A stretch of 64,000 bases of DNA. It comes from a phage. A program made the translations under genes and the position numbers. Under the pieces are notes generated by a model. That model saw only the letters and a program-made list of their open reading frames with translations. It was not told the DNA's origin and ran no database searches. Location of the stretch: the sequence record PX423614.1; one strand, 5' to 3'. Positions 643 to 56,665 of the stretch are shown in pieces; within the stretch, counting starts at the first letter, position 1, and every line of letters starts with the position of its first letter.

Positions 643-1860
643 ATGTTCCCTGTAACACTTCAAAGCTGGAAAGAATCAGAAGACGTTGTAACTGTTTGGC
701 CTCCTTGTTATGGTTTCCTGAAAGCAGGTTACTATCAGGGTGGTGATTATGGTGAAGATGAAGACGGTGATCCTGACTACTACTGCACATACGACAGCAA
801 CTACGGCTGGAATATCCGCATTAAGGTGTGGAGTAAAAATATGATGGTTCGTCAAGGCACTGCCGAAGAGAACGTTCTCGAAAACATGATGCCTATGTCC
901 GAAATCAAGTACATCTGGAACTCTGGTACACACCTTCCCGCTTATGGTGTAAAACGCTATGGTGATAAAGAGCCTATTGCCACTCAATATTTCCGTGAAG
1001 GGGTGGAGAATGGAGACCCTCGTCCACCTTCCCACGTAGAAACATGGGCAGAAGAAAACAACCGTCCTGATATTACTGATCGCGCTGTAATGGAAGCTTT
1101 TGAAGCATTCATGGATAAAGATTCTGACTCATGTCTGGTGTGGCATGAAGCAGGATTCATGGGTGTTTGTACTGATGGTTGTCCTGCTGATCGCGCTCTG
1201 TTCTATCTGATGCTGAATCGCACATTCTATACAGATGATGAAAAATCTGCTGTGTATGAAATGTTGAACAAGATGTATAAGAAGGGCTGGTCTCCTTTAG
1301 CCTCTCTTGCATTCAGCCGACTGATCAACTCTTCAGTGGATGTGTTCGGTAACGAACGTGTTGCTTTAACAGGGAATGATTATGATTCCTGTATCTTCCA
1401 AGCATCTCTGTATACAGTGGGTGTTGGCAGTACAATGGTTGAACCTCGCCAGACCAAGTGGCGACAGTGTGAATACACCGAAGGTGAAGGGCATCTTCGT
1501 GATGAAGACTTCCCCAGTCTGCTCTACCGTAGTGAAGGTGTGCGAGACTGTCGAGTGAATAACTCAATGTTCTTACCAATCCTTCTTCCTCAGTATTGCA
1601 ATCTGCCGAATGGTGAACGTCCGGTCATCACAGAGAAGTCACTCTTGGTTGAATTTATCCGAGAAGTGGCTGAATCTGAAACATCTTTTGATAAAATTGT
1701 GTTCGGTTATAACTGGAACAATGAAACAGCTTCAGCTCGAAGCTACAACACGTATAACATTATCAGTAGTATGTCCAATGGACTGACAGGTAGTAATTAT
1801 ACAGTACGTCCCTCAGAAGAGTGGGAAACCATTATGGAAAAATTATTCTTTAATAAATAG
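643..1860 (+). CDS. hypothetical protein (405 aa), first gene of candidate modification cluster
   Basis: ORF track; RBS-like AAAGAGG upstream; no motif recognised by eye. Confidence 0.6.
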   Translation: MFPVTLQSWKESEDVVTVWPPCYGFLKAGYYQGGDYGEDEDGDPDYYCTYDSNYGWNIRIKVWSKNMMVRQGTAEENVLENMMPMSEIKYIWNSGTHLPAYGVKRYGDKEPIATQYFREGVENGDPRPPSHVETWAEENNRPDITDRAVMEAFEAFMDKDSDSCLVWHEAGFMGVCTDGCPADRALFYLMLNRTFYTDDEKSAVYEMLNKMYKKGWSPLASLAFSRLINSSVDVFGNERVALTGNDYDSCIFQASLYTVGVGSTMVEPRQTKWRQCEYTEGEGHLRDEDFPSLLYRSEGVRDCRVNNSMFLPILLPQYCNLPNGERPVITEKSLLVEFIREVAESETSFDKIVFGYNWNNETASARSYNTYNIISSMSNGLTGSNYTVRPSEEWETIMEKLFFNK

Positions 1861-1868
1861 AGGCGAAT

Positions 1869-2819
1869 ATGTCAATCTCCGCATCGATTGCTCCGGTAAC
1901 ACCGGCAGAGGATTTCGGTGAGTCAGTGTTCAAAGGAAGAGCTTGCTTTGGTACTTTTAACTGTATGCACATGTATTCTGTTACAGACATTAACGGTGAA
2001 AGTCGTAACCGAACAAGCCTTCGTGATAGAACTTCAGAAATTGAAGTTATTAACTTCTGGCCTCACAATTTTTATGGCGTACCAGCTAAAGATATCGAAA
2101 GAGCTTTGGTTGAAGCAACAGACATTTTTAACTCAATGTCTTGCTATAAAGATATGTTCTCTGTCACTTCGGTGAACTCTATTGCCGTGAACCTTCGAAA
2201 CCATCCAGCAGACAAGGTGTTTACTGGACTAATGACCATCCGTAGCTATTTGGATGGTGATTTTAATGGAATGGAGTTCCTTCAGGAAGGCGTACAAGAC
2301 AAGGAAGAGTTGCTTAAGCGACAACGAATCGGTTTAGCTCTACGCCTAGCTGGTTTAAGTCGTAACTTCTTTGGTCGCTGGTGTTATAGTAATGACGTAG
2401 ACTCAACTGATGAGTCAGCAGCGACTTATTTTGATGGTGACATGAGTGCAATTGCATTTCTGCCACTAATTTGCACCACTGATGAATTTTCTGAAAACGT
2501 ATGGGTTCAGAATGTGTTCGGTGTTGATGATAACCGAGATGGTTATGTACGAAACCATAATGATGGAGTTCTCCGTCGTATGGCACGTCGTCGTGACCAA
2601 GACCCTGACCATTACGAGAGTATGAGTGAATGGTTACGTCTCTGGTCAACTTGTGCAGGTCACAAGAGAGAAGTATTAGATCAGCGTATGGATAGAATTA
2701 CTGTTCGTAGTTTTATTGAACGTCTGATGCAAGCAGTACCTTCCTCAATGACACCAGAAGAAGCTGGTGCCCGTGTTGTTTCCCTTTTTGATGAACTCGT
2801 GGAGTATTACAATGACTAA
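1869..2819 (+). CDS. hypothetical protein (316 aa)
   Basis: ORF track; stop TAA overlaps the next ATG (ATGACTAA). Confidence 0.6.
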   Translation: MSISASIAPVTPAEDFGESVFKGRACFGTFNCMHMYSVTDINGESRNRTSLRDRTSEIEVINFWPHNFYGVPAKDIERALVEATDIFNSMSCYKDMFSVTSVNSIAVNLRNHPADKVFTGLMTIRSYLDGDFNGMEFLQEGVQDKEELLKRQRIGLALRLAGLSRNFFGRWCYSNDVDSTDESAATYFDGDMSAIAFLPLICTTDEFSENVWVQNVFGVDDNRDGYVRNHNDGVLRRMARRRDQDPDHYESMSEWLRLWSTCAGHKREVLDQRMDRITVRSFIERLMQAVPSSMTPEEAGARVVSLFDELVEYYND

Positions 2820-3618
2820 GCGCGCTTTCCTTATTGGCTCTGACCCTGAAATGTTTGTTCGTACTGCTTCCGGTATTATCACCTCTGTGGCTGGTAAGCT
2901 GGGCTGTTCTAAAGATAATAAAATTGATCTGGCTCCTGATGTTCGTCTTCAAGAAGACAACGTTCTGGCTGAGTTTGATATTAACCCACAGAAAGGGTTT
3001 GAAGCGTTTGATGATAATATTCAGCGTGGTATTGATCTGACTAACAAAGTTCTCAATGAACGTGGCATGGAGGCAGCACTTGGGATTAGCTCTCATGTGT
3101 TCACTTCAGAAGAACTTGAATCATTCCACCCGTCAGCTTTTGTATTTGGCTGTACTCCTGATTTCAATGCCTTCACTGGACAAAAGAACCCTTCACCAGT
3201 CGCAACTGATAAGGGTTTGCGTACTGCTGGGGGTCATGTGCACCTTGGTGTCTCCGGGACTTTAGAGATTACTCGACAAACTCAAATGATGTTGGGTGTG
3301 TTGTGTGATTACTTCCTGTCCTTGCCAGCTGTGATCATGGATAAAGACACTCGTCGTAAAGAGTTGTACGGAAAGGCTTCTGCCATTCGCTACAAAGATT
3401 ACGGTATTGAATATCGTTCTCTTTCTAACTTCTGGATTGGTGATAAGTCCACTCGCAAGTTTGTTTATGAGCAAGTGGATAAGGTTGTTCAGGGTTGTGA
3501 TATGGAAGTGTTGATGTCACTTCACTCTCGCCTTCCAATTGAAAAGCTTCACAACATCATCAACAGCAACGATGTTAAAGAAGCGGATAAATTCTCCTCT
3601 AAACTCCAGATTGTATAA
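2812..3618 (+). CDS. hypothetical protein, possibly divergent amidoligase-like
   Basis: ATG at 2812 (MTKRAFLIGSDPEMF) overlapping upstream stop; GSDPE and GGHVHLG motifs loosely reminiscent of carboxylate-amine ligases; product assignment weak. Confidence 0.55.
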   Translation: MTKRAFLIGSDPEMFVRTASGIITSVAGKLGCSKDNKIDLAPDVRLQEDNVLAEFDINPQKGFEAFDDNIQRGIDLTNKVLNERGMEAALGISSHVFTSEELESFHPSAFVFGCTPDFNAFTGQKNPSPVATDKGLRTAGGHVHLGVSGTLEITRQTQMMLGVLCDYFLSLPAVIMDKDTRRKELYGKASAIRYKDYGIEYRSLSNFWIGDKSTRKFVYEQVDKVVQGCDMEVLMSLHSRLPIEKLHNIINSNDVKEADKFSSKLQIV

Positions 3619-3627
3619 GGTGATATT

Positions 3628-4254
3628 GTGAGCTTGTTAAGAGATTTTCAACACTATTATTGTGGAACATGGATTGCTCAGCGATCACCTGATGGTAAAA
3701 ACCTCCCTCTATATGTGCTTGATGTTCGTCAGCAAGGTAACTTTGATATCGACGACTATTCACACGACGCTGAAATGTCTTTAGTGTTTGAGGCGGAACG
3801 CTGGACTAAAAACTCTGAAGGTCAGTTTGAACGTCAGGTTGTTAGTAATATCCCAGTGTTTGATCACAGCCTCATTCTGGAGTCTCCAGATGTAGGATAC
3901 CTTCAGCATGGTAATAACATGGTGAGCTGGACCCATATCAACCCTGTTCGTCAGCGAGCTAAAGGCTTGATGGGGAATAAACTTCGTGGTGCTCCGCCTT
4001 CTCTCGGACGTTCGATTCCGGGTGATTTGGTGTACAACCTGTTTAATCCAGAGTTTGAAGGGTTGGTTACTCGTTTCATCTATATCAATCCTGTCGATGG
4101 AAAAGTTTATTACAAAGGAGCTTACGTTGGAAACGTGCTTCTTGAAGCTGGTTATGGCGACAATGGTCGTCAATCTTTAAACCTTCTGGAGAAGTTCAAG
4201 CATATTTCTTCAGACCTGTCATCATATAATGTAGAGTTGGTGGAATCATTATGA
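3628..4254 (+). CDS. hypothetical protein (208 aa, GTG start)
   Basis: ORF track; stop overlaps next start (ATGA at 4251). Confidence 0.5.
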   Translation: MSLLRDFQHYYCGTWIAQRSPDGKNLPLYVLDVRQQGNFDIDDYSHDAEMSLVFEAERWTKNSEGQFERQVVSNIPVFDHSLILESPDVGYLQHGNNMVSWTHINPVRQRAKGLMGNKLRGAPPSLGRSIPGDLVYNLFNPEFEGLVTRFIYINPVDGKVYYKGAYVGNVLLEAGYGDNGRQSLNLLEKFKHISSDLSSYNVELVESL

Positions 4255-52650: not shown

Positions 52651-53394
52651 TTAACTGTAGTGTTTGATTCCATACAACTCACGAGAGCTGTGAAGACGGT
52701 CAATAGTTCTAGGAATAACTAGAGGAGAGCCTGAGTATTCAGCTTTCTTACTCTGTTCAACTACCTCATCTAGAATAGCTTTCCCTAAAGCAGACCATTT
52801 CTGAACCCCATTATCATCTTGGACAAATAAGCTTGCATGACGTAATGTGAAATATAGAAGAAGCTCTGGAGCTATTGTTAAAATTGCACTTGTATCAGAA
52901 TCCTCATGAAACTCCGGAGGGTCTGCATAATAGCTAAGAATTACCGAATTCTCCGCTGGAATAAGAGGGCTTCCATCATCAGGATAGACCGGAGTGTCAG
53001 CGTTGATAGCTGGGTAGAACAGGAACCGACTTCCCAACCTAGTAAAACTCACTTCTCCCTGATTCCAGTTAGTTGGGTTTACTGAGTTATTTCTTTTCAG
53101 CCAATCTAACTCTTCTGGAGAAGTCACTCGGAACATATGTCCATTGCTTGCTCTCATCATCCATTGAGCTTCTAAATAGTCTGGTGGAATAAAAGCCACA
53201 CCATCTTTAATATCTAAGTATACTTCTTTTTCCAGAGGAGGAATTCGTAAGTTACGATAGATTTCTTTCTCTGCAAAGTTAATAAAGTTTGGAATCTGAT
53301 TAACAAATTCATCATCATCCCTGTCAGCCCAGAGGGACACAGCTTTCTTGAGCCATCCGTAGGTATTGATGGGATATTGGACGTCAGGCATCAT
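52651..53394 (-). CDS. virion structural protein (247 aa)
   Basis: ORF track; between HNH gene and fibre. Confidence 0.5.
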   Translation of the reverse strand: MMPDVQYPINTYGWLKKAVSLWADRDDDEFVNQIPNFINFAEKEIYRNLRIPPLEKEVYLDIKDGVAFIPPDYLEAQWMMRASNGHMFRVTSPEELDWLKRNNSVNPTNWNQGEVSFTRLGSRFLFYPAINADTPVYPDDGSPLIPAENSVILSYYADPPEFHEDSDTSAILTIAPELLLYFTLRHASLFVQDDNGVQKWSALGKAILDEVVEQSKKAEYSGSPLVIPRTIDRLHSSRELYGIKHYS

Positions 53395-53896
53395 AATAAA
53401 CCTCCTTCCAGTTTACGCCTTTAGTAATGAGAGATATTGTGCTTTTAGAGACCCTAAATTTTCTAGCTAAGGCTCTAGCTCCAAACTCTCTATCTCTCGG
53501 TTTGTAGTTCTCCAAACAAAAGAGAACTTGCTCTTTAGTGAGTTTGGAATTAGGGTTATCCTCAAGATTCCTTGGTGTTGAGAGTTTTGTTTCATAAGCA
53601 TGTACACAGTTTTCTTGTTGAGTACACCACTCTAAATTCTCAATCCTGTTGTCATCTTTTATTCCATTCTTATGGTTGATATACTCCTTCCCTTCTACTT
53701 TAGGAAGAAAGAGTTCAGCTATGACTCTATGCTCTAGGTAAGATTTCTTCTTGAAGGTTAACACACGATACCCCTTACTGTTAATACATCCAGCACGTTG
53801 ACCTTTCTGTTTATTGAATATGTTACTCATAGACCAGAAAAGATACCCTGTATTTGGGTCATATGTAAAAGCTCCTCTGAAATCTGGCATTGCCAT
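53384..53896 (-). CDS. HNH homing endonuclease, free-standing in the late operon
   Basis: YINHKNGIKDDNRIENLEWCTQQEN HNH motif. Confidence 0.65.
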   Translation of the reverse strand: MAMPDFRGAFTYDPNTGYLFWSMSNIFNKQKGQRAGCINSKGYRVLTFKKKSYLEHRVIAELFLPKVEGKEYINHKNGIKDDNRIENLEWCTQQENCVHAYETKLSTPRNLEDNPNSKLTKEQVLFCLENYKPRDREFGARALARKFRVSKSTISLITKGVNWKEVYYDA

Positions 53897-53959: not shown

Positions 53960-53990
53960 TAAAATGAGAAAAGGCCACCCGAAGGCAGCC
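53960..53990 (-). terminator. hairpin with UUCG tetraloop plus T-tract (on - strand)
   Basis: - strand GGCUGCC-UUCG-GGUGGCC (two wobble pairs) followed by UUUUCUCAUUUU; directly 3' of the Ig-like ORF stop. Confidence 0.5.
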
Positions 53991-53996
53991 TTAGTT

Positions 53997-55628
53997 TTAA
54001 GCACCAGATTTAACGGTGTAGGTTTTGAACACTGTAGAACCTGGGTCAGTTCTCAGGGTTACTTTAGTATCTTCACTAGTGATAGCACCAGAGAGCGTAA
54101 TTGTTAAAGCATCACCAGAAATGGTAATACTCAATTTGTCTGCATCTGTGCCTTCTACATCATATACGATAGTTCCTAGTGGAGCACCTTGAGGAACAGA
54201 AGCTATGTTAAAAACTCCTGGTTGGCTTGGGTCTGAGATTGTCAAAGTATCACCAGCTACTGACCCATCAGACACTGCTGAAACAACTAAACCAGTAAGT
54301 TTAGGTATTACGTCTTCTATGGTAGAAGTTGCAGTTACTGAAGTCTGGGTTTTATGAGTAGCCTTAACAGTTACATTGTCATTCGCTGTATCTGACAAGG
54401 TTAACAAGCCAGAGGTAGCATTAACAGAACCGGCAGCAGTTGGAGTTACTACGAAATTATAGTTAGTAGCTGCGGAGTTAGTAACAGTAAACATTTCAGC
54501 AAACGTTACTGTACCTCCTGCGGATTTACCACCTACTATCTTGCCTGTAATTGTAGCTTTTGGCGATACACCTGTCAAATTGAACGTAGCAGTGACAGTT
54601 GTTTTAATTTTATGAGTAGCTTTGATACTCACATCACCAGTAGCTGTATCAGCCAGAGTTAACAACCCAGAAGCATTAACGGAACCAGCAGCTGTCGGAG
54701 TAACAACGAAGTTGTAGTCAGATGCCGCAGAGTTGGTTACTGTAAACATGTCAGCAAACGCAACCGTATCACCGCCTATCTTACCAGCAACAGCAGCTTT
54801 AGCTACGACAGTTGGAAGAGGAGTTACACCATTAATACTAGCAGTTGCAGTAATAGAAGTTACCGTCTTGTGAGTAGCTTTAACAGTTACGTTACCACTA
54901 GCTGTACCAGCTAAAGTGAGCTGACCAGCAGCATTCACTGTACCGGCAGCAGTAGGGGTTACTACAAAATTATAGTCACTAGCAGCTGAGCGTTGAACAG
55001 TAAACATATCTGTAAAAGCGACACTGTCTCCACCAGATTTTCCAGTAATAGCAGCTTTAGCCGCGATAGTTGGAGGCTGAGGGTTGACAACAACGTTAAT
55101 CACTTTAGTGACAGAAGGTTTAGTAGAAGATTTAACTGTAAGAGTAGTACTACCTGCTGCAACAGCAGTTACACGACCAGCAGTTGTTACCGTAGCCTTA
55201 GTCGGATCTGCAATTTCCCAAGTAACACCTTGAGGTGCACCAGCAGGAGATACAGAAGCAGTCAGATTGGTAGCATCTGGAACAGTTATGGTAAGAGTAT
55301 CACCAGTTAGACCACCACCAGTTACAGCAATGGAAGCTGGGTCAGGGATTGGAGCTTTAATTTCCGAGATAACGGCAGTACCTGATACATCTTTAAGAGT
55401 AGCAGTCACTGTAATATCAGCGGTTTGAGGCGAACCCGGAGCAGTGAACAGTCCAGAAACAGAAATGGCCCCACCACCGGCTACTGACCAATCGAAGCCT
55501 GTAGTAGATGTGGAGCCATCGCTTAGTTCTGCTTCAGCTGTAAACTGTTGGGTAGCCCCGGTCAGCAGACTAGCCACTGACGCGGGACTAACAGTTACGC
55601 TGTCAACTGTTACGCCTCCACCTTTCCC
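53997..55628 (-). CDS. Ig-like (Big_2-type) repeat extension, predicted to be expressed as a -1 frameshift fusion to the major capsid protein
   Basis: ~540 codons open in the -1 frame relative to the capsid gene, no plausible own start/RBS; tandem repeats of VTPTAAGSVNA...VKATHKT; slippery G GGA AAG at capsid codons 346-348. Confidence 0.55.
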   Translation of the reverse strand, partial: GKGGGVTVDSVTVSPASVASLLTGATQQFTAEAELSDGSTSTTGFDWSVAGGGAISVSGLFTAPGSPQTADITVTATLKDVSGTAVISEIKAPIPDPASIAVTGGGLTGDTLTITVPDATNLTASVSPAGAPQGVTWEIADPTKATVTTAGRVTAVAAGSTTLTVKSSTKPSVTKVINVVVNPQPPTIAAKAAITGKSGGDSVAFTDMFTVQRSAASDYNFVVTPTAAGTVNAAGQLTLAGTASGNVTVKATHKTVTSITATASINGVTPLPTVVAKAAVAGKIGGDTVAFADMFTVTNSAASDYNFVVTPTAAGSVNASGLLTLADTATGDVSIKATHKIKTTVTATFNLTGVSPKATITGKIVGGKSAGGTVTFAEMFTVTNSAATNYNFVVTPTAAGSVNATSGLLTLSDTANDNVTVKATHKTQTSVTATSTIEDVIPKLTGLVVSAVSDGSVAGDTLTISDPSQPGVFNIASVPQGAPLGTIVYDVEGTDADKLSITISGDALTITLSGAITSEDTKVTLRTDPGSTVFKTYTVKSGA

Positions 55629-56665
55629 GCAGCGGTGAACAATACACCAGAAGCATATGGGTTGCGGTGACGCAGACCAACTTCCATTTCGATCATCCAT
55701 TTCTCGTAAGAACCATCTTTCGCCAGTTCAGTACGTTTCGGAGCACGAAGAACCATCTGAGTCCAGTCAGAGCTGCGGAAGAAGTAAACTGCATCAGCAG
55801 GCATCCAACGGTTAACGATGATTTTATAGCTCTGACCCAGCGGGTCAGTGATGCTGTTAACTTCATAGATGAACTGTTTGGTGTTCTCAAAGATACGCTG
55901 ACGAGAACCAACAGAGTTTTCCTGAAGCTTAGCAAAGATGCTAGCGTGAGCAGGGTTAATCATGATGATGTCTGCTTCAGAACCGGCGGTATACAGTTGC
56001 AGAGTCATATCAAAGATATCAGCTTCATCAAAACCGATGTTCGTAGTCGGGTTAGAAGCATTCTGTGCAACTTTAACAGTTACTGCACCAGTATCTGGGT
56101 CAGCAGGACCATCTTCTTTCTTAACAACACCACCAGCAACACCGTTGTGTGCACACAGGAACTGGAAAGCACCAGTCTTACGAGCAGCTGAGGTGTCATT
56201 CTGACCTACAACAGCAGGATCAGTTGCAGAGTTGGTCAGATACTGGTCTGCCAGAATATCGGTACGAGCCTGACCGGACAGCAAGATTTTCTCGAGGTCA
56301 CGTTTAATCTCTTTACCTTTCTTCTCCAGCTGATACATCAGTTCACGACCACGACCGTAGTTAGCGGTGGTGTTAGCAGTATCAGAAACACGAACAACTT
56401 TACGCAGGATCTGAGTAACGTTGGACTTGATTACAGTCGGTTTCATTTCGCCGTCTTCAGCACGAGAGCCTTCGACGTGGGCGTTGTTAGCATCTACGCT
56501 CGCCAGAGCATCGGTCTGCCAGCTGAAAATAGTCTGATTGATAGACTCTTTACCAGTCATAGACACAAACGGAGTGTCTTGCGGAGACAGGACAGAAATC
56601 CAGTTAGCAAAAGAAAGTTTTTTACCATTCTGGTCGTAAGATACAAATAAAGTTGGATTTGCCAT
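55610..56665 (-). CDS. major capsid protein (351 aa)
   Basis: Directly downstream of acidic scaffold gene; strong RBS; product assigned by operon position, not by recognised motif. Confidence 0.55.
   Translation of the reverse strand: MANPTLFVSYDQNGKKLSFANWISVLSPQDTPFVSMTGKESINQTIFSWQTDALASVDANNAHVEGSRAEDGEMKPTVIKSNVTQILRKVVRVSDTANTTANYGRGRELMYQLEKKGKEIKRDLEKILLSGQARTDILADQYLTNSATDPAVVGQNDTSAARKTGAFQFLCAHNGVAGGVVKKEDGPADPDTGAVTVKVAQNASNPTTNIGFDEADIFDMTLQLYTAGSEADIIMINPAHASIFAKLQENSVGSRQRIFENTKQFIYEVNSITDPLGQSYKIIVNRWMPADAVYFFRSSDWTQMVLRAPKRTELAKDGSYEKWMIEMEVGLRHRNPYASGVLFTAAGKVEA
55622..55628 (-). other. -1 programmed ribosomal frameshift slippery heptamer G GGA AAG
   Basis: On - strand mRNA, GCG GGA AAG GTG GAG GCG TAA in capsid frame; slipping to GGG AAA G enters the Ig-like ORF (…GKGGGVTVDS…). 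Confidence 0.5.

Follow-up and report, generated by a model that had tools for sequence, protein, structure and literature searches.

The 3′ end of the major capsid protein (MCP) gene of this phiEco32-like (Gordonclarkvirinae, SU7/NC-B-like) E. coli podophage very probably carries a programmed −1 frameshift cassette, yielding a predicted capsid-Ig fusion. This reading, already proposed in the initial annotation of the sequence, is supported by the phase of the slip site, the open −1 reading frame, the lack of separate initiation signals, conservation and the position of the first domain boundary. Coordinates below refer to the window, that is, the whole 64,000-nt stretch that was analyzed. The elements of the cassette are the following:

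55610–56665, minus strand: major capsid protein gene, zero frame, 351 aa, 38.6 kDa, from the ORF list
55622–55628, minus strand: slippery heptamer G_GGA_AAG in X_XXY_YYZ phase, three sense codons ahead of the MCP stop
53997–55622, minus strand: −1 frame extension, 541 codons plus stop, accessible only after a slip
53971–53992, minus strand: terminator-like hairpin with T-run, 4 nt past the extension stop codon

The zero-frame gene encodes an HK97-fold, SU10-type MCP. Its product matches Pfam PF17236 (SU10_MCP) over the full length of the profile (residues 12-343, E 2.6e-79) and PDB 7z45, the SU10 major head protein, over residues 1-350 (E 1.7e-221), it is 100% identical to the MCP of Phage NC-B, and its gene has the Shine-Dalgarno sequence AGGAG 10 nt upstream. 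The capsid frame ends in ...GCG GGA AAG GTG GAG GCG TAA, so that the slippery GGA is the fifth codon before the stop, exactly where the initial annotation had placed it. The heptamer lies at offset 1037 of the capsid CDS, which is the correct phase (1037 mod 3 = 2), and is the sole in-phase canonical heptamer within the capsid gene. GGGAAAG as such is not enriched (7 copies in the 64,000-nt window versus 6.76 expected); since the motif occurs at chance frequency, its count carries no weight, and what makes this copy significant is its phase, where it lies and how well it is conserved.

Between 55727 and the stop codon at 53997-53999, the −1 frame stays open across the slip site, and a slip at the heptamer gives the continuous capsid-Ig fusion that had been claimed. 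The predicted product reads ...FTAAGK|GGGVTVDSVTV... and comprises 889 aa (91.5 kDa), in which a GGG linker joins 347 capsid residues to six Ig-like modules; the predicted trans-frame junction is ...FTAAGK-GGGVTVDSVTVSPASV..., also given as ...FTAAGK-GGGVTVDSVTVSPASVASLLTGATQQFTAEAELSDGS.... The extension of 541/542 residues agrees with the earlier figure of ~540, and the ~95 kDa foreseen for the fusion was slightly above the computed mass. When compared with the extension of phage Bas88, the ratio dN/dS is 0.18 in the −1 frame and >2 in both other frames; judged by these substitution patterns, the extension is under purifying selection, and only in the −1 frame. A scan of the same strand found no terminator-like site between the MCP stop and the Ig ORF, and the position equivalent to that of the hairpin behind the extension carries annotated terminators in Paul, SU10, WFI101126 and Privateer.

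In the proposed mechanism, for which we infer the slip efficiency, the capsid incorporation, the fiber function and the role of the RNA, most ribosomes would read GGA-AAG-GUG-GAG-GCG-UAA and release the 351-aa capsid protein, while a minority would slip one base back on G_GGA_AAG, with the P-site tRNA-Gly re-pairing on GGG instead of GGA and the A-site tRNA-Lys on AAA instead of AAG. The slipped ribosomes would go on in the −1 frame through the GGG linker, two Big_2 domains, three tandem repeats and a terminal module. The resulting 889-aa fusion would co-assemble with the normal capsid protein at a minority of positions of the prolate head, where its fused modules may form a flexible Ig-like fiber outside the head. 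By analogy with the Ig-like domains of other phages, such a fiber would probably adhere weakly to carbohydrate on the surface of cells or on mucus.

The modular composition of the extension can be laid out as follows:

55614–55622, minus strand: Gly-Gly-Gly linker codons GGT GGA GGC, joining the capsid body to the first Ig domain
55344–55613, minus strand: D1, Big_2, extension residues 4-93, common to every relative
55074–55343, minus strand: D2, Big_2, extension residues 94-183 (E 6.6e-10, 39.2 bits)
54273–55073, minus strand: R1-R3, three tandem repeats of ~86-92 aa, extension residues 184-450, predicted beta-sandwich
54000–54272, minus strand: D6, C-terminal module, extension residues 451-541, all-beta, without sequence-family match

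The linker stretch doubles as the zero-frame codons for the last capsid residues V-E-A; in all relatives, it reads GGG, GGS or GSGG in the −1 frame, and the zero-frame tail varies between VEA, AGA, VAA and AAA. The first Big_2 domain starts only 5 residues past the slip site, and D1 exceeds the cut-off of Pfam Big_2 (PF02368; 26.4 versus 22.8 bits), its residues 6-83 covering profile positions 2-75 of 79. R1 shows a weak Big_2 match (E 0.0021, 18.4 bits) under the 22.8-bit gathering threshold, and R2, R3 and D6 gave no Pfam Big_2 match. A module-by-module alignment reveals 65-69% mutual identity among R1-R3 and a KATHK motif at 248, 334 and 420; these repeats are visible at the protein level only, with Tandem Repeats Finder returning nothing on the extension DNA, and BLASTP of the extension against itself returned the identity match only. 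D2 is restricted to the lineage of this phage, Bas88, Bas87, EK010 and TH42, and D6 is also present in Bas88, Bas87, EK010, Paul, YF01, Bas86, Bas89, SR02 and EP335. An AF2 model of the extension is all-beta with six modules (mean pLDDT 80.4; 93-97 for R1-R3 and lower, 43-75, for D1-D2). Its Foldseek matches in the PDB, with E down to 1e-18, include Ig-array, cadherin, invasin, RTX-adhesin and S-layer proteins as well as two chains from the SU10 virion and tail, 7z4b_DW and 7z4f_G; the arbitrary geometry between domains keeps the TM-scores low. As modeled, the extension is a tandem array of Ig-like beta-sandwich modules of ~90 aa each.

The arrangement is conserved among relatives. GGGAAAG is found at the same site in 24/24 Gordonclarkvirinae loci, 3-4 codons ahead of the MCP stop, and the −1 ORF is open past the heptamer in the Gordonclarkvirinae loci compared; the deposited SU10 sequence stops prematurely within the extension, which shows that at least one lineage can do without it. 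On the upstream side of the heptamer, 22 of the 24 variable columns are third positions of the capsid frame, from which it follows that the −1 frame is non-coding there. Downstream of the capsid stop, the variable columns are spread over all three phases (37/29/29) since the extension is more divergent; here, the conserved peptide GGGVTVDSVTV and the dN/dS values support coding in the −1 frame. The relatives differ in the number of Ig modules, forming a modular series of 2 to 6 that is always in frame with the slip site. The closest extension to that of this phage is the one of Bas88, with 97.9% identity.

We also considered the RNA downstream of the heptamer, for which three elements were predicted:

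55589–55612, minus strand: hairpin H1, UAACAGU(U)-N8-(A)ACUGUUA, from the MCP stop codon, 9 nt past the heptamer
55555–55588, minus strand: GC-rich apical helix (RNAalifold; alignment columns 56-67 with 79-89)
55540–55598, minus strand: alternative long hairpin, with a lower helix pairing 55598-55591 with 55548-55540 and enclosing the apical helix

The structure prediction that the initial annotation had recommended does reveal a conserved hairpin downstream of the slip site. The region suggested there for a reporter assay, 55590-55660, is too short, as the structure reaches to ~55540. H1 alone folds at −7.1 kcal/mol, and 7/7 of its base pairs are invariant in 18 distinct relatives; because these pairs never vary, their conservation gives no covariation evidence for H1. 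Its distance from the heptamer is 9 nt in this phage and up to 12 nt in relatives, typical frameshift stimulators being spaced 5-9 nt downstream of the slip site. In the apical helix, 99.4% of alignment cells are paired versus 25-52% in slid controls; at pair 66-80, AU, UA and GC are each found in 6 sequences, and pair 67-79 is GC or UG. The long hairpin and H1 are mutually exclusive, with ACUGUUA pairing either upstream with UAACAGU at the capsid stop or downstream with ACAGUU, and the two folds are nearly equal in energy (MFE −35.4 kcal/mol, z −2.7, with the long hairpin; −34.2 with H1). The long hairpin has one covarying pair, 48-102, with 2 exceptions. The covariation-supported helix begins ~33 nt past the heptamer (23 nt when the long hairpin is formed with its lower helix), which is beyond the spacing typical of stimulators, and no Shine-Dalgarno-like sequence is visible by eye in the 20 nt upstream of the heptamer. 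The conserved structured RNA at 55612-55540 probably tunes the slip frequency. It is tempting to speculate, if only tentatively, that it represents an undescribed, family-specific frameshift-modulating element, in which two exclusive base helices around a covarying apical helix perhaps set the ratio of plain to fiber-bearing subunits, the number of Ig modules (2-6) then being a rapidly evolving adaptation to host or environment. The stem-loop of Mirzaei et al. enclosing the slip site (CTGCTGCGGGAAAGGCGGCGG) was rejected: its RNAalifold pairs are weak, G-rich with C/U-rich, and show no compensatory change. A metagenome scan with TTCACNGCNGCGGGAAAGG returned mostly chance matches; the 4 genuine ones held no new RNA haplotype.

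Could the Ig ORF instead be a separate gene, translated by independent initiation or by termination-reinitiation from GTG 55577 into a free decoration or other protein of ~526 aa? This is how most GenBank records, including that of Bas88, present it, as a stand-alone “Ig domain containing protein”, and the authors of the SU10 cryo-EM structure took gp10 as a distinct putative minor capsid protein; moreover, GTG 55577 lies just 32 nt past the capsid stop, which makes reinitiation conceivable. The initiation signals nevertheless render this improbable. Near the 5′ end of the −1 ORF, the only candidate starts are ATG 55700, GTG 55577 and GTG 55409, and none has a Shine-Dalgarno match of at least 4 nt, whereas 7/7 neighboring genes match over 4-7 nt. 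The same holds among 23 relatives, in which no Shine-Dalgarno sequence precedes any candidate Ig start, and in the SU7 record, which annotates an RBS for each neighboring gene and none for the Ig ORF. Hence, the earlier description of an ORF overlapping the capsid 3′ end without a convincing start or RBS is borne out by the scan. Neither is the start position conserved: across 23 relatives, the first candidate shifts between extension residues 9, 16, 34 and 47, and the codon corresponding to GTG 55577 is GTG, TTA, GTT or ATG. Each such start would also truncate the first Big_2 domain by at least its beta-strand A: the D1 match begins at extension residue 6 and thereby precedes the GTG start annotated in Bas88 by ten residues, and the −1 frame peptide GGGVTVDSVTV, upstream of those starts, is conserved as protein. 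Finally, GTG 55577, used as the Ig start in some annotations, is base-paired within the conserved apical helix. ATG 55700 was rejected as a start: the capsid Lys-Trp codons dictate it, it lacks a Shine-Dalgarno sequence, and in the phiEco32-type relatives, whose −1 ORF opens just 79 nt ahead of the capsid end, a −1 frame stop follows it.

A programmed frameshift is also what has been published for the capsid genes of close relatives (PMC9965538; PMC7881722; PMC4281155). The YF01 paper describes the GGGAAAG slip for the whole Kuravirus-like group, with isoforms of 892 aa (YF01) and 894 aa (Paul) identified in silico (PMC9965538); joined CDSs are annotated in the GenBank records of Paul, YF01 and Privateer, and record MN045231 carries the note “Frameshift at GGGAAAG”. 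For phiEco32, secondary citations report detection of the frameshift product by MS, and the minor capsid protein of Privateer has been detected by SDS-PAGE and MS. In the case of SU10, forms of 38.5 and 55.4 kDa were reported by MS, SDS-PAGE showed no extended band according to the YF01 paper (PMC9965538), and the cryo-EM head shows no extra density. The present locus resembles the Kuravirus-like ones (phiEco32 gp11-gp12; Paul CPT_Paul_010; YF01) in an MCP that is 93-100% identical, in GGGAAAG at the same position, in the −1 direction, the GGG linker and the first Big_2 domain, and in its length class (889 versus 892/894 aa). In contrast, the extension is only about 49-55% identical to those of Paul and YF01 and differs in its modules, with D1, D2, three repeats and D6 in this phage and Bas88 versus D1, four repeats and D6 in Paul and YF01; in Bas88, the extension is annotated as a separate gene rather than a frameshift product. 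The extension, which had been called unusually long, is so relative to T7 10B or phiEco32 but is equaled in YF01 and Paul, and the novelty thereby implied was overstated, given these equally long isoforms and the Bas88 extension.

Still less likely is that the heptamer and the open −1 frame were merely kept by descent, with negligible frameshifting and an unexpressed or irrelevant relic of an extension: the premature stop and plain capsid of SU10, the chance frequency of the heptamer in the window and the in silico nature of the YF01 and Paul isoforms would fit this, but the 1.6-kb ORF is intact with dN/dS of 0.18 in the −1 frame against >2 in the others, the domain repertoire is actively remodeled among relatives yet always in frame with the slip site, and compensatory changes maintain the RNA helix.

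The programmed frameshift, including its long variant, is already in the literature for this phage group, and the current understanding is unchanged; modest additions are the covarying hairpin downstream, the 2-to-6-domain series and the duplicated capsid genes that replace the frameshift in some Grimontviridae. Since the Ig ORF appears in most records as a gene of its own that starts at an arbitrary internal codon, a predicted structural protein of ~890 aa is missed. Kuravirus-like phages are under development against pathogenic E. coli, and a six-domain fiber on a fraction of the capsid subunits could affect adsorption, mucus adherence, immunogenicity and pharmacokinetics. The capsid-Ig fusion could also serve as a natural scaffold for capsid display.

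Comparable systems exist outside this group. T7 10B uses a different slip site and gains only ~53 residues, compared with 542 residues in six domains here, and the two capsid families are unrelated at the sequence level. What the T7/T3 10A/10B pair shares with the present locus is that ribosomes shift by −1 shortly before a podophage MCP gene ends, which leads to a minor, C-terminally extended surface species (cited in PMC9965538). The heptamer itself is, as had been pointed out, identical to the G_GGA_AAG of lambda G/GT, which also slips in the −1 direction and at low efficiency but belongs to a tail assembly chaperone gene, not a capsid gene. The lambda GT product is an assembly factor, not known to be present in virions, and not a displayed structural fusion. 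The efficiency of the lambda slip is ~3.5%, as quoted second-hand in PMC9965538. The SU10-type MCP gene of Proteus phage Privateer (Grimontviridae) likewise has a GGGAAAG −1 slip at its 3′ end, leading into an Ig-like extension; the Privateer MCP, however, is 58% identical, the heptamer abuts the stop codon and the extension, at 169 aa, has the length of about one or two domains. Salmonella phage 7-11 and Cronobacter phage A24 (Grimontviridae) also have SU10-type MCPs and apparently combine a plain with a C-terminally extended MCP, but in these phages a pair of paralogous capsid genes takes the place of the frameshift: the second MCP copy of 7-11 is fused directly in frame to the extension (313 + 586 aa), and the MCP copies of A24 comprise 313 and 362 aa.

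Both the major capsid protein (MCP) and the Ig-like ORF are encoded in a late structural operon on the minus strand (ORF list).

Features of the late structural operon (window coordinates)
60277-58034, minus strand: portal (ORF list)
Between portal and scaffolding protein, minus strand: small ORF (ORF list)
57788-56706, minus strand: acidic scaffolding protein (ORF list)
56665-55610, minus strand: MCP (Pfam SU10_MCP, E 2.6e-79)
After the long Ig-like ORF, minus strand: HNH endonuclease, adaptor-like virion protein and tail fibre (ORF list)
53992-53971, minus strand: terminator-like hairpin with T-run, 4 nt past the extension stop

The solved major head protein of SU10 (7z45) matches the MCP with an E value of 1.7e-221, and the window belongs to a phiEco32-like (Gordonclarkvirinae) E. 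coli podophage. Phage NC-B and SU7 share ~94% identity with it over 84% of 25 kb, the NC-B MCP is 100% identical, and Bas88 is the closest record across the capsid-Ig region (95.6%).

The capsid frame ends in ...TTC ACC GCT GCG GGA AAG GTG GAG GCG TAA, with G_GGA_AAG at 55628-55622 (minus strand) in exact X_XXY_YYZ phase, the only in-phase heptamer of this kind in the MCP gene. The same heptamer serves the lambda G/GT shift, as the initial annotation had noted, and T7 10A/10B follows the same logic. The heptamer, frames and coordinates of that annotation (53997-56665) were confirmed on rechecking, including the position of the heptamer five codons before the stop (GGA AAG GTG GAG GCG TAA) and an extension of ~540 residues. 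No stop interrupts the -1 frame between 55727 and its terminal stop at 53999-53997. Slippage yields the continuous capsid-Ig fusion that had been proposed, reading ...FTAAGK-GGG-VTVDSVTVSPAS...; its computed size is 889 aa (91.5 kDa), whereas the plain MCP has 351 aa (38.6 kDa). GGGAAAG itself is not enriched in the window (7 copies, 6.76 expected); the case for frameshifting rests on its context. Conservation, selection and the surrounding signals support the annotated interpretation, and the predicted 91.5-kDa fusion arising by -1 frameshift is very probably the intended product.

In all 24 Gordonclarkvirinae loci obtained from GenBank and IMG/VR, GGGAAAG lies 3-4 codons ahead of the MCP stop, and the -1 ORF runs through the heptamer without a stop. 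Of the 24 variable alignment columns in the 126 nt that end at the heptamer, 22 fall on third codon positions of the capsid frame, indicating that the -1 frame is not coding upstream of the heptamer. Directly downstream, relatives keep the -1 peptide GGGVTVDSVTVSP but differ in the zero-frame MCP tail (VEA, AGA, VAA or AAA). Between the window and Bas88, dN/dS of the extension is 0.18 in the -1 frame and above 2 in both other frames; purifying selection thus acts on the extension in the -1 frame.

The extension consists of six modules of ~86-93 residues each. The first two, D1 and D2, score above the Pfam threshold as Big_2 domains (the D1 alignment begins at extension residue 6, covers profile positions 2-75 of 79 and exceeds the gathering threshold), R1-R3 are tandem repeats with 65-69% mutual identity, and the terminal D6 has no sequence-family match. 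AlphaFold2, run with 23 homologues, gives an all-beta model whose mean pLDDT is 80.4; the repeats reach 93-97, and D1-D2 score lower. Foldseek against the PDB retrieves tandem Ig-like, cadherin, invasin, RTX-adhesin and S-layer arrays as well as SU10 virion and tail chains. Given this evidence, "Ig-like repeat extension" was a fair description. Among relatives, extension sizes are discrete (178-180, 264-271, 351-372, 455-459 and 541-545 residues) and reflect how the modules combine: D1 is always present, D2 and D6 may be missing, and the R repeats number one to four. The window ranks among the longest, alongside Bas88, Paul and YF01.

RNA structure prediction downstream of the heptamer, as suggested in the initial annotation, was carried out with RNAalifold on the junction alignment (18 distinct sequences) and revealed a conserved hairpin directly after the slip site (55540-55612, minus strand; folding z-score of the full 87-nt region, -2.7). 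In its GC-rich apical helix (55588-55555), 99.4% of cells are paired, compared with 25-52% in slid controls. Pair 66-80, in which the synonymous third base of a Ser codon pairs with the middle base, 14 nt away, of a codon for Leu, Glu, Gln or Pro, occurs as A-U, U-A and G-C in six sequences each, and pair 67-79 is G-C or U-G; compensatory change in this helix is real. The base of the structure is ambiguous between two helices. ACUGUUA (55595-55589) pairs either with UAACAGU at the capsid stop codon, giving hairpin H1 (9 nt past the heptamer in the window, 9-12 nt in relatives, 7/7 pairs invariant), or with an ACAGUU farther downstream, in which case a 20-bp hairpin forms, beginning 23 nt past the heptamer. 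The two folds are mutually exclusive and nearly isoenergetic (-34.2 and -35.4 kcal/mol, respectively). Since the covariation-supported helix is spaced farther from the heptamer than classical stimulators, we offer modulation of frameshifting by this element only as a hypothesis. The hairpin is neither mentioned in the YF01 paper (PMC9965538) nor described in the other papers cited here on this phage group, and it differs from the stem proposed by Mirzaei et al., which encloses the slip site.

Most database annotations imply instead that the Ig ORF is a separate gene, translated by independent initiation or reinitiation. Its start is annotated 12, 33 or 84 nt past the capsid stop in different phages (relatives' loci L001, L017, L025-L029 and others), and these three starts are arbitrary and pipeline-made; all would cut at least the first ten aligned residues from the first Big_2 domain. 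Consistent with the annotated lack of a convincing start codon or RBS, none of the three candidate starts (ATG 55700, GTG 55577, GTG 55409) has a Shine-Dalgarno match of at least 4 nt, whereas 7/7 neighbouring genes have matches of 4-7 nt. Relatives differ in where their earliest possible start lies (extension residue 9, 16, 34 or 47), and in none is it preceded by a Shine-Dalgarno sequence; the codon aligned with 55577 varies among GTG, TTA, GTT and ATG. In the SU7 record, RBSs are annotated for all the neighbouring genes but not for the Ig ORF. With start signals missing and non-conserved, the first domain truncated and a candidate GTG buried in the conserved helix, a separate gene is improbable, and its mis-annotation as such is widespread: among the relatives' GenBank records, only Paul, YF01 and Privateer carry the joined frameshift product (Paul and YF01 as joined CDSs). 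Scanning the same strand for terminators gave no terminator-like site from the MCP stop to the Ig ORF; at the place equivalent to 53992-53971, terminators are annotated in Paul, SU10, WFI101126 and Privateer. Less likely still is a silent relic, given the purifying selection on the extension and domain remodelling that stays in frame.

The capsid frameshift is already published and the finding is known; what little is added here is the covarying RNA hairpin downstream of the slip site, the modular series of extension domains and how widely the Ig ORF is mis-annotated. According to the YF01 paper, which also cites lambda and T7, slippage at GGGAAAG close to the stop codon produces two MCP forms in YF01 "and other group phages"; the isoforms of YF01 (892 aa) and Paul (894 aa) far exceed the ~500-550 aa found in other members. 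In SU10, the paper reports, a premature stop has removed the extension, and SDS-PAGE showed no extended band (PMC9965538). The Paul record notes [quoted passage not shown], and Privateer (Grimontviridae) has the identical heptamer, with its longer protein backed by SDS-PAGE and MS. For SU10, Mirzaei et al. (2014) reported MCP forms of 38.5 and 55.4 kDa by MS, but the cryo-EM study found no extra density on the head. Just past the capsid stop, SU10 (L003, KM044272) reads TAACAGTAGACACTGTCTACTGTTAG and phiEco32 TAACAGTAGACAGTGTGACTGTTAG, a one-base length difference. As a result, 11 codons past the slip the -1 frame meets a TAG, and the Ig domain falls in the capsid zero frame, behind two stops. 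This difference may account for the conflict between the 55-kDa form and the plain cryo-EM capsid, and could stem from stock divergence or sequencing error.

Other relatives differ at this position. Two tandem capsid paralogues occur in Salmonella phage 7-11 (L022, locus 1182-3958), Cronobacter phage A24 (L023, 2192-4296), L013 and L014, all Grimontviridae-type loci without a frameshift signal at the MCP 3' position; the second 7-11 copy (586 aa) is joined in frame to an extension. Tandem paralogues are another genetic route to a pair of plain and extended capsid proteins. In four IMG/VR contigs (L009-L012), capsid genes end CTG AAG GTA AAG GCG TAA, and the -1 frame continues without a stop into a Big_2-like ORF. 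Their G_GUA_AAG, ~10 nt ahead of the capsid stop at locus 4424, is not a canonical X_XXY_YYZ heptamer and may be a non-canonical site at which frameshifting depends on tRNA-Lys slipping on A_AAG; in L009-L011, a GC-rich tetraloop hairpin (GCGCCC-CUAC-GGGCGU) maintained by G-U wobble changes follows 6 nt past it. Finally, the window's HNH_3 endonuclease gene (170 aa, 53384-53896, minus strand) sits between the extension's terminator and the adaptor-like virion gene, overlapping the latter's start by 11 nt. It occurs at the same site in Bas86, is absent there from Bas88, phiEco32, SU7, EK010 and the other relatives fetched, and looks like a mobile homing-endonuclease insertion.
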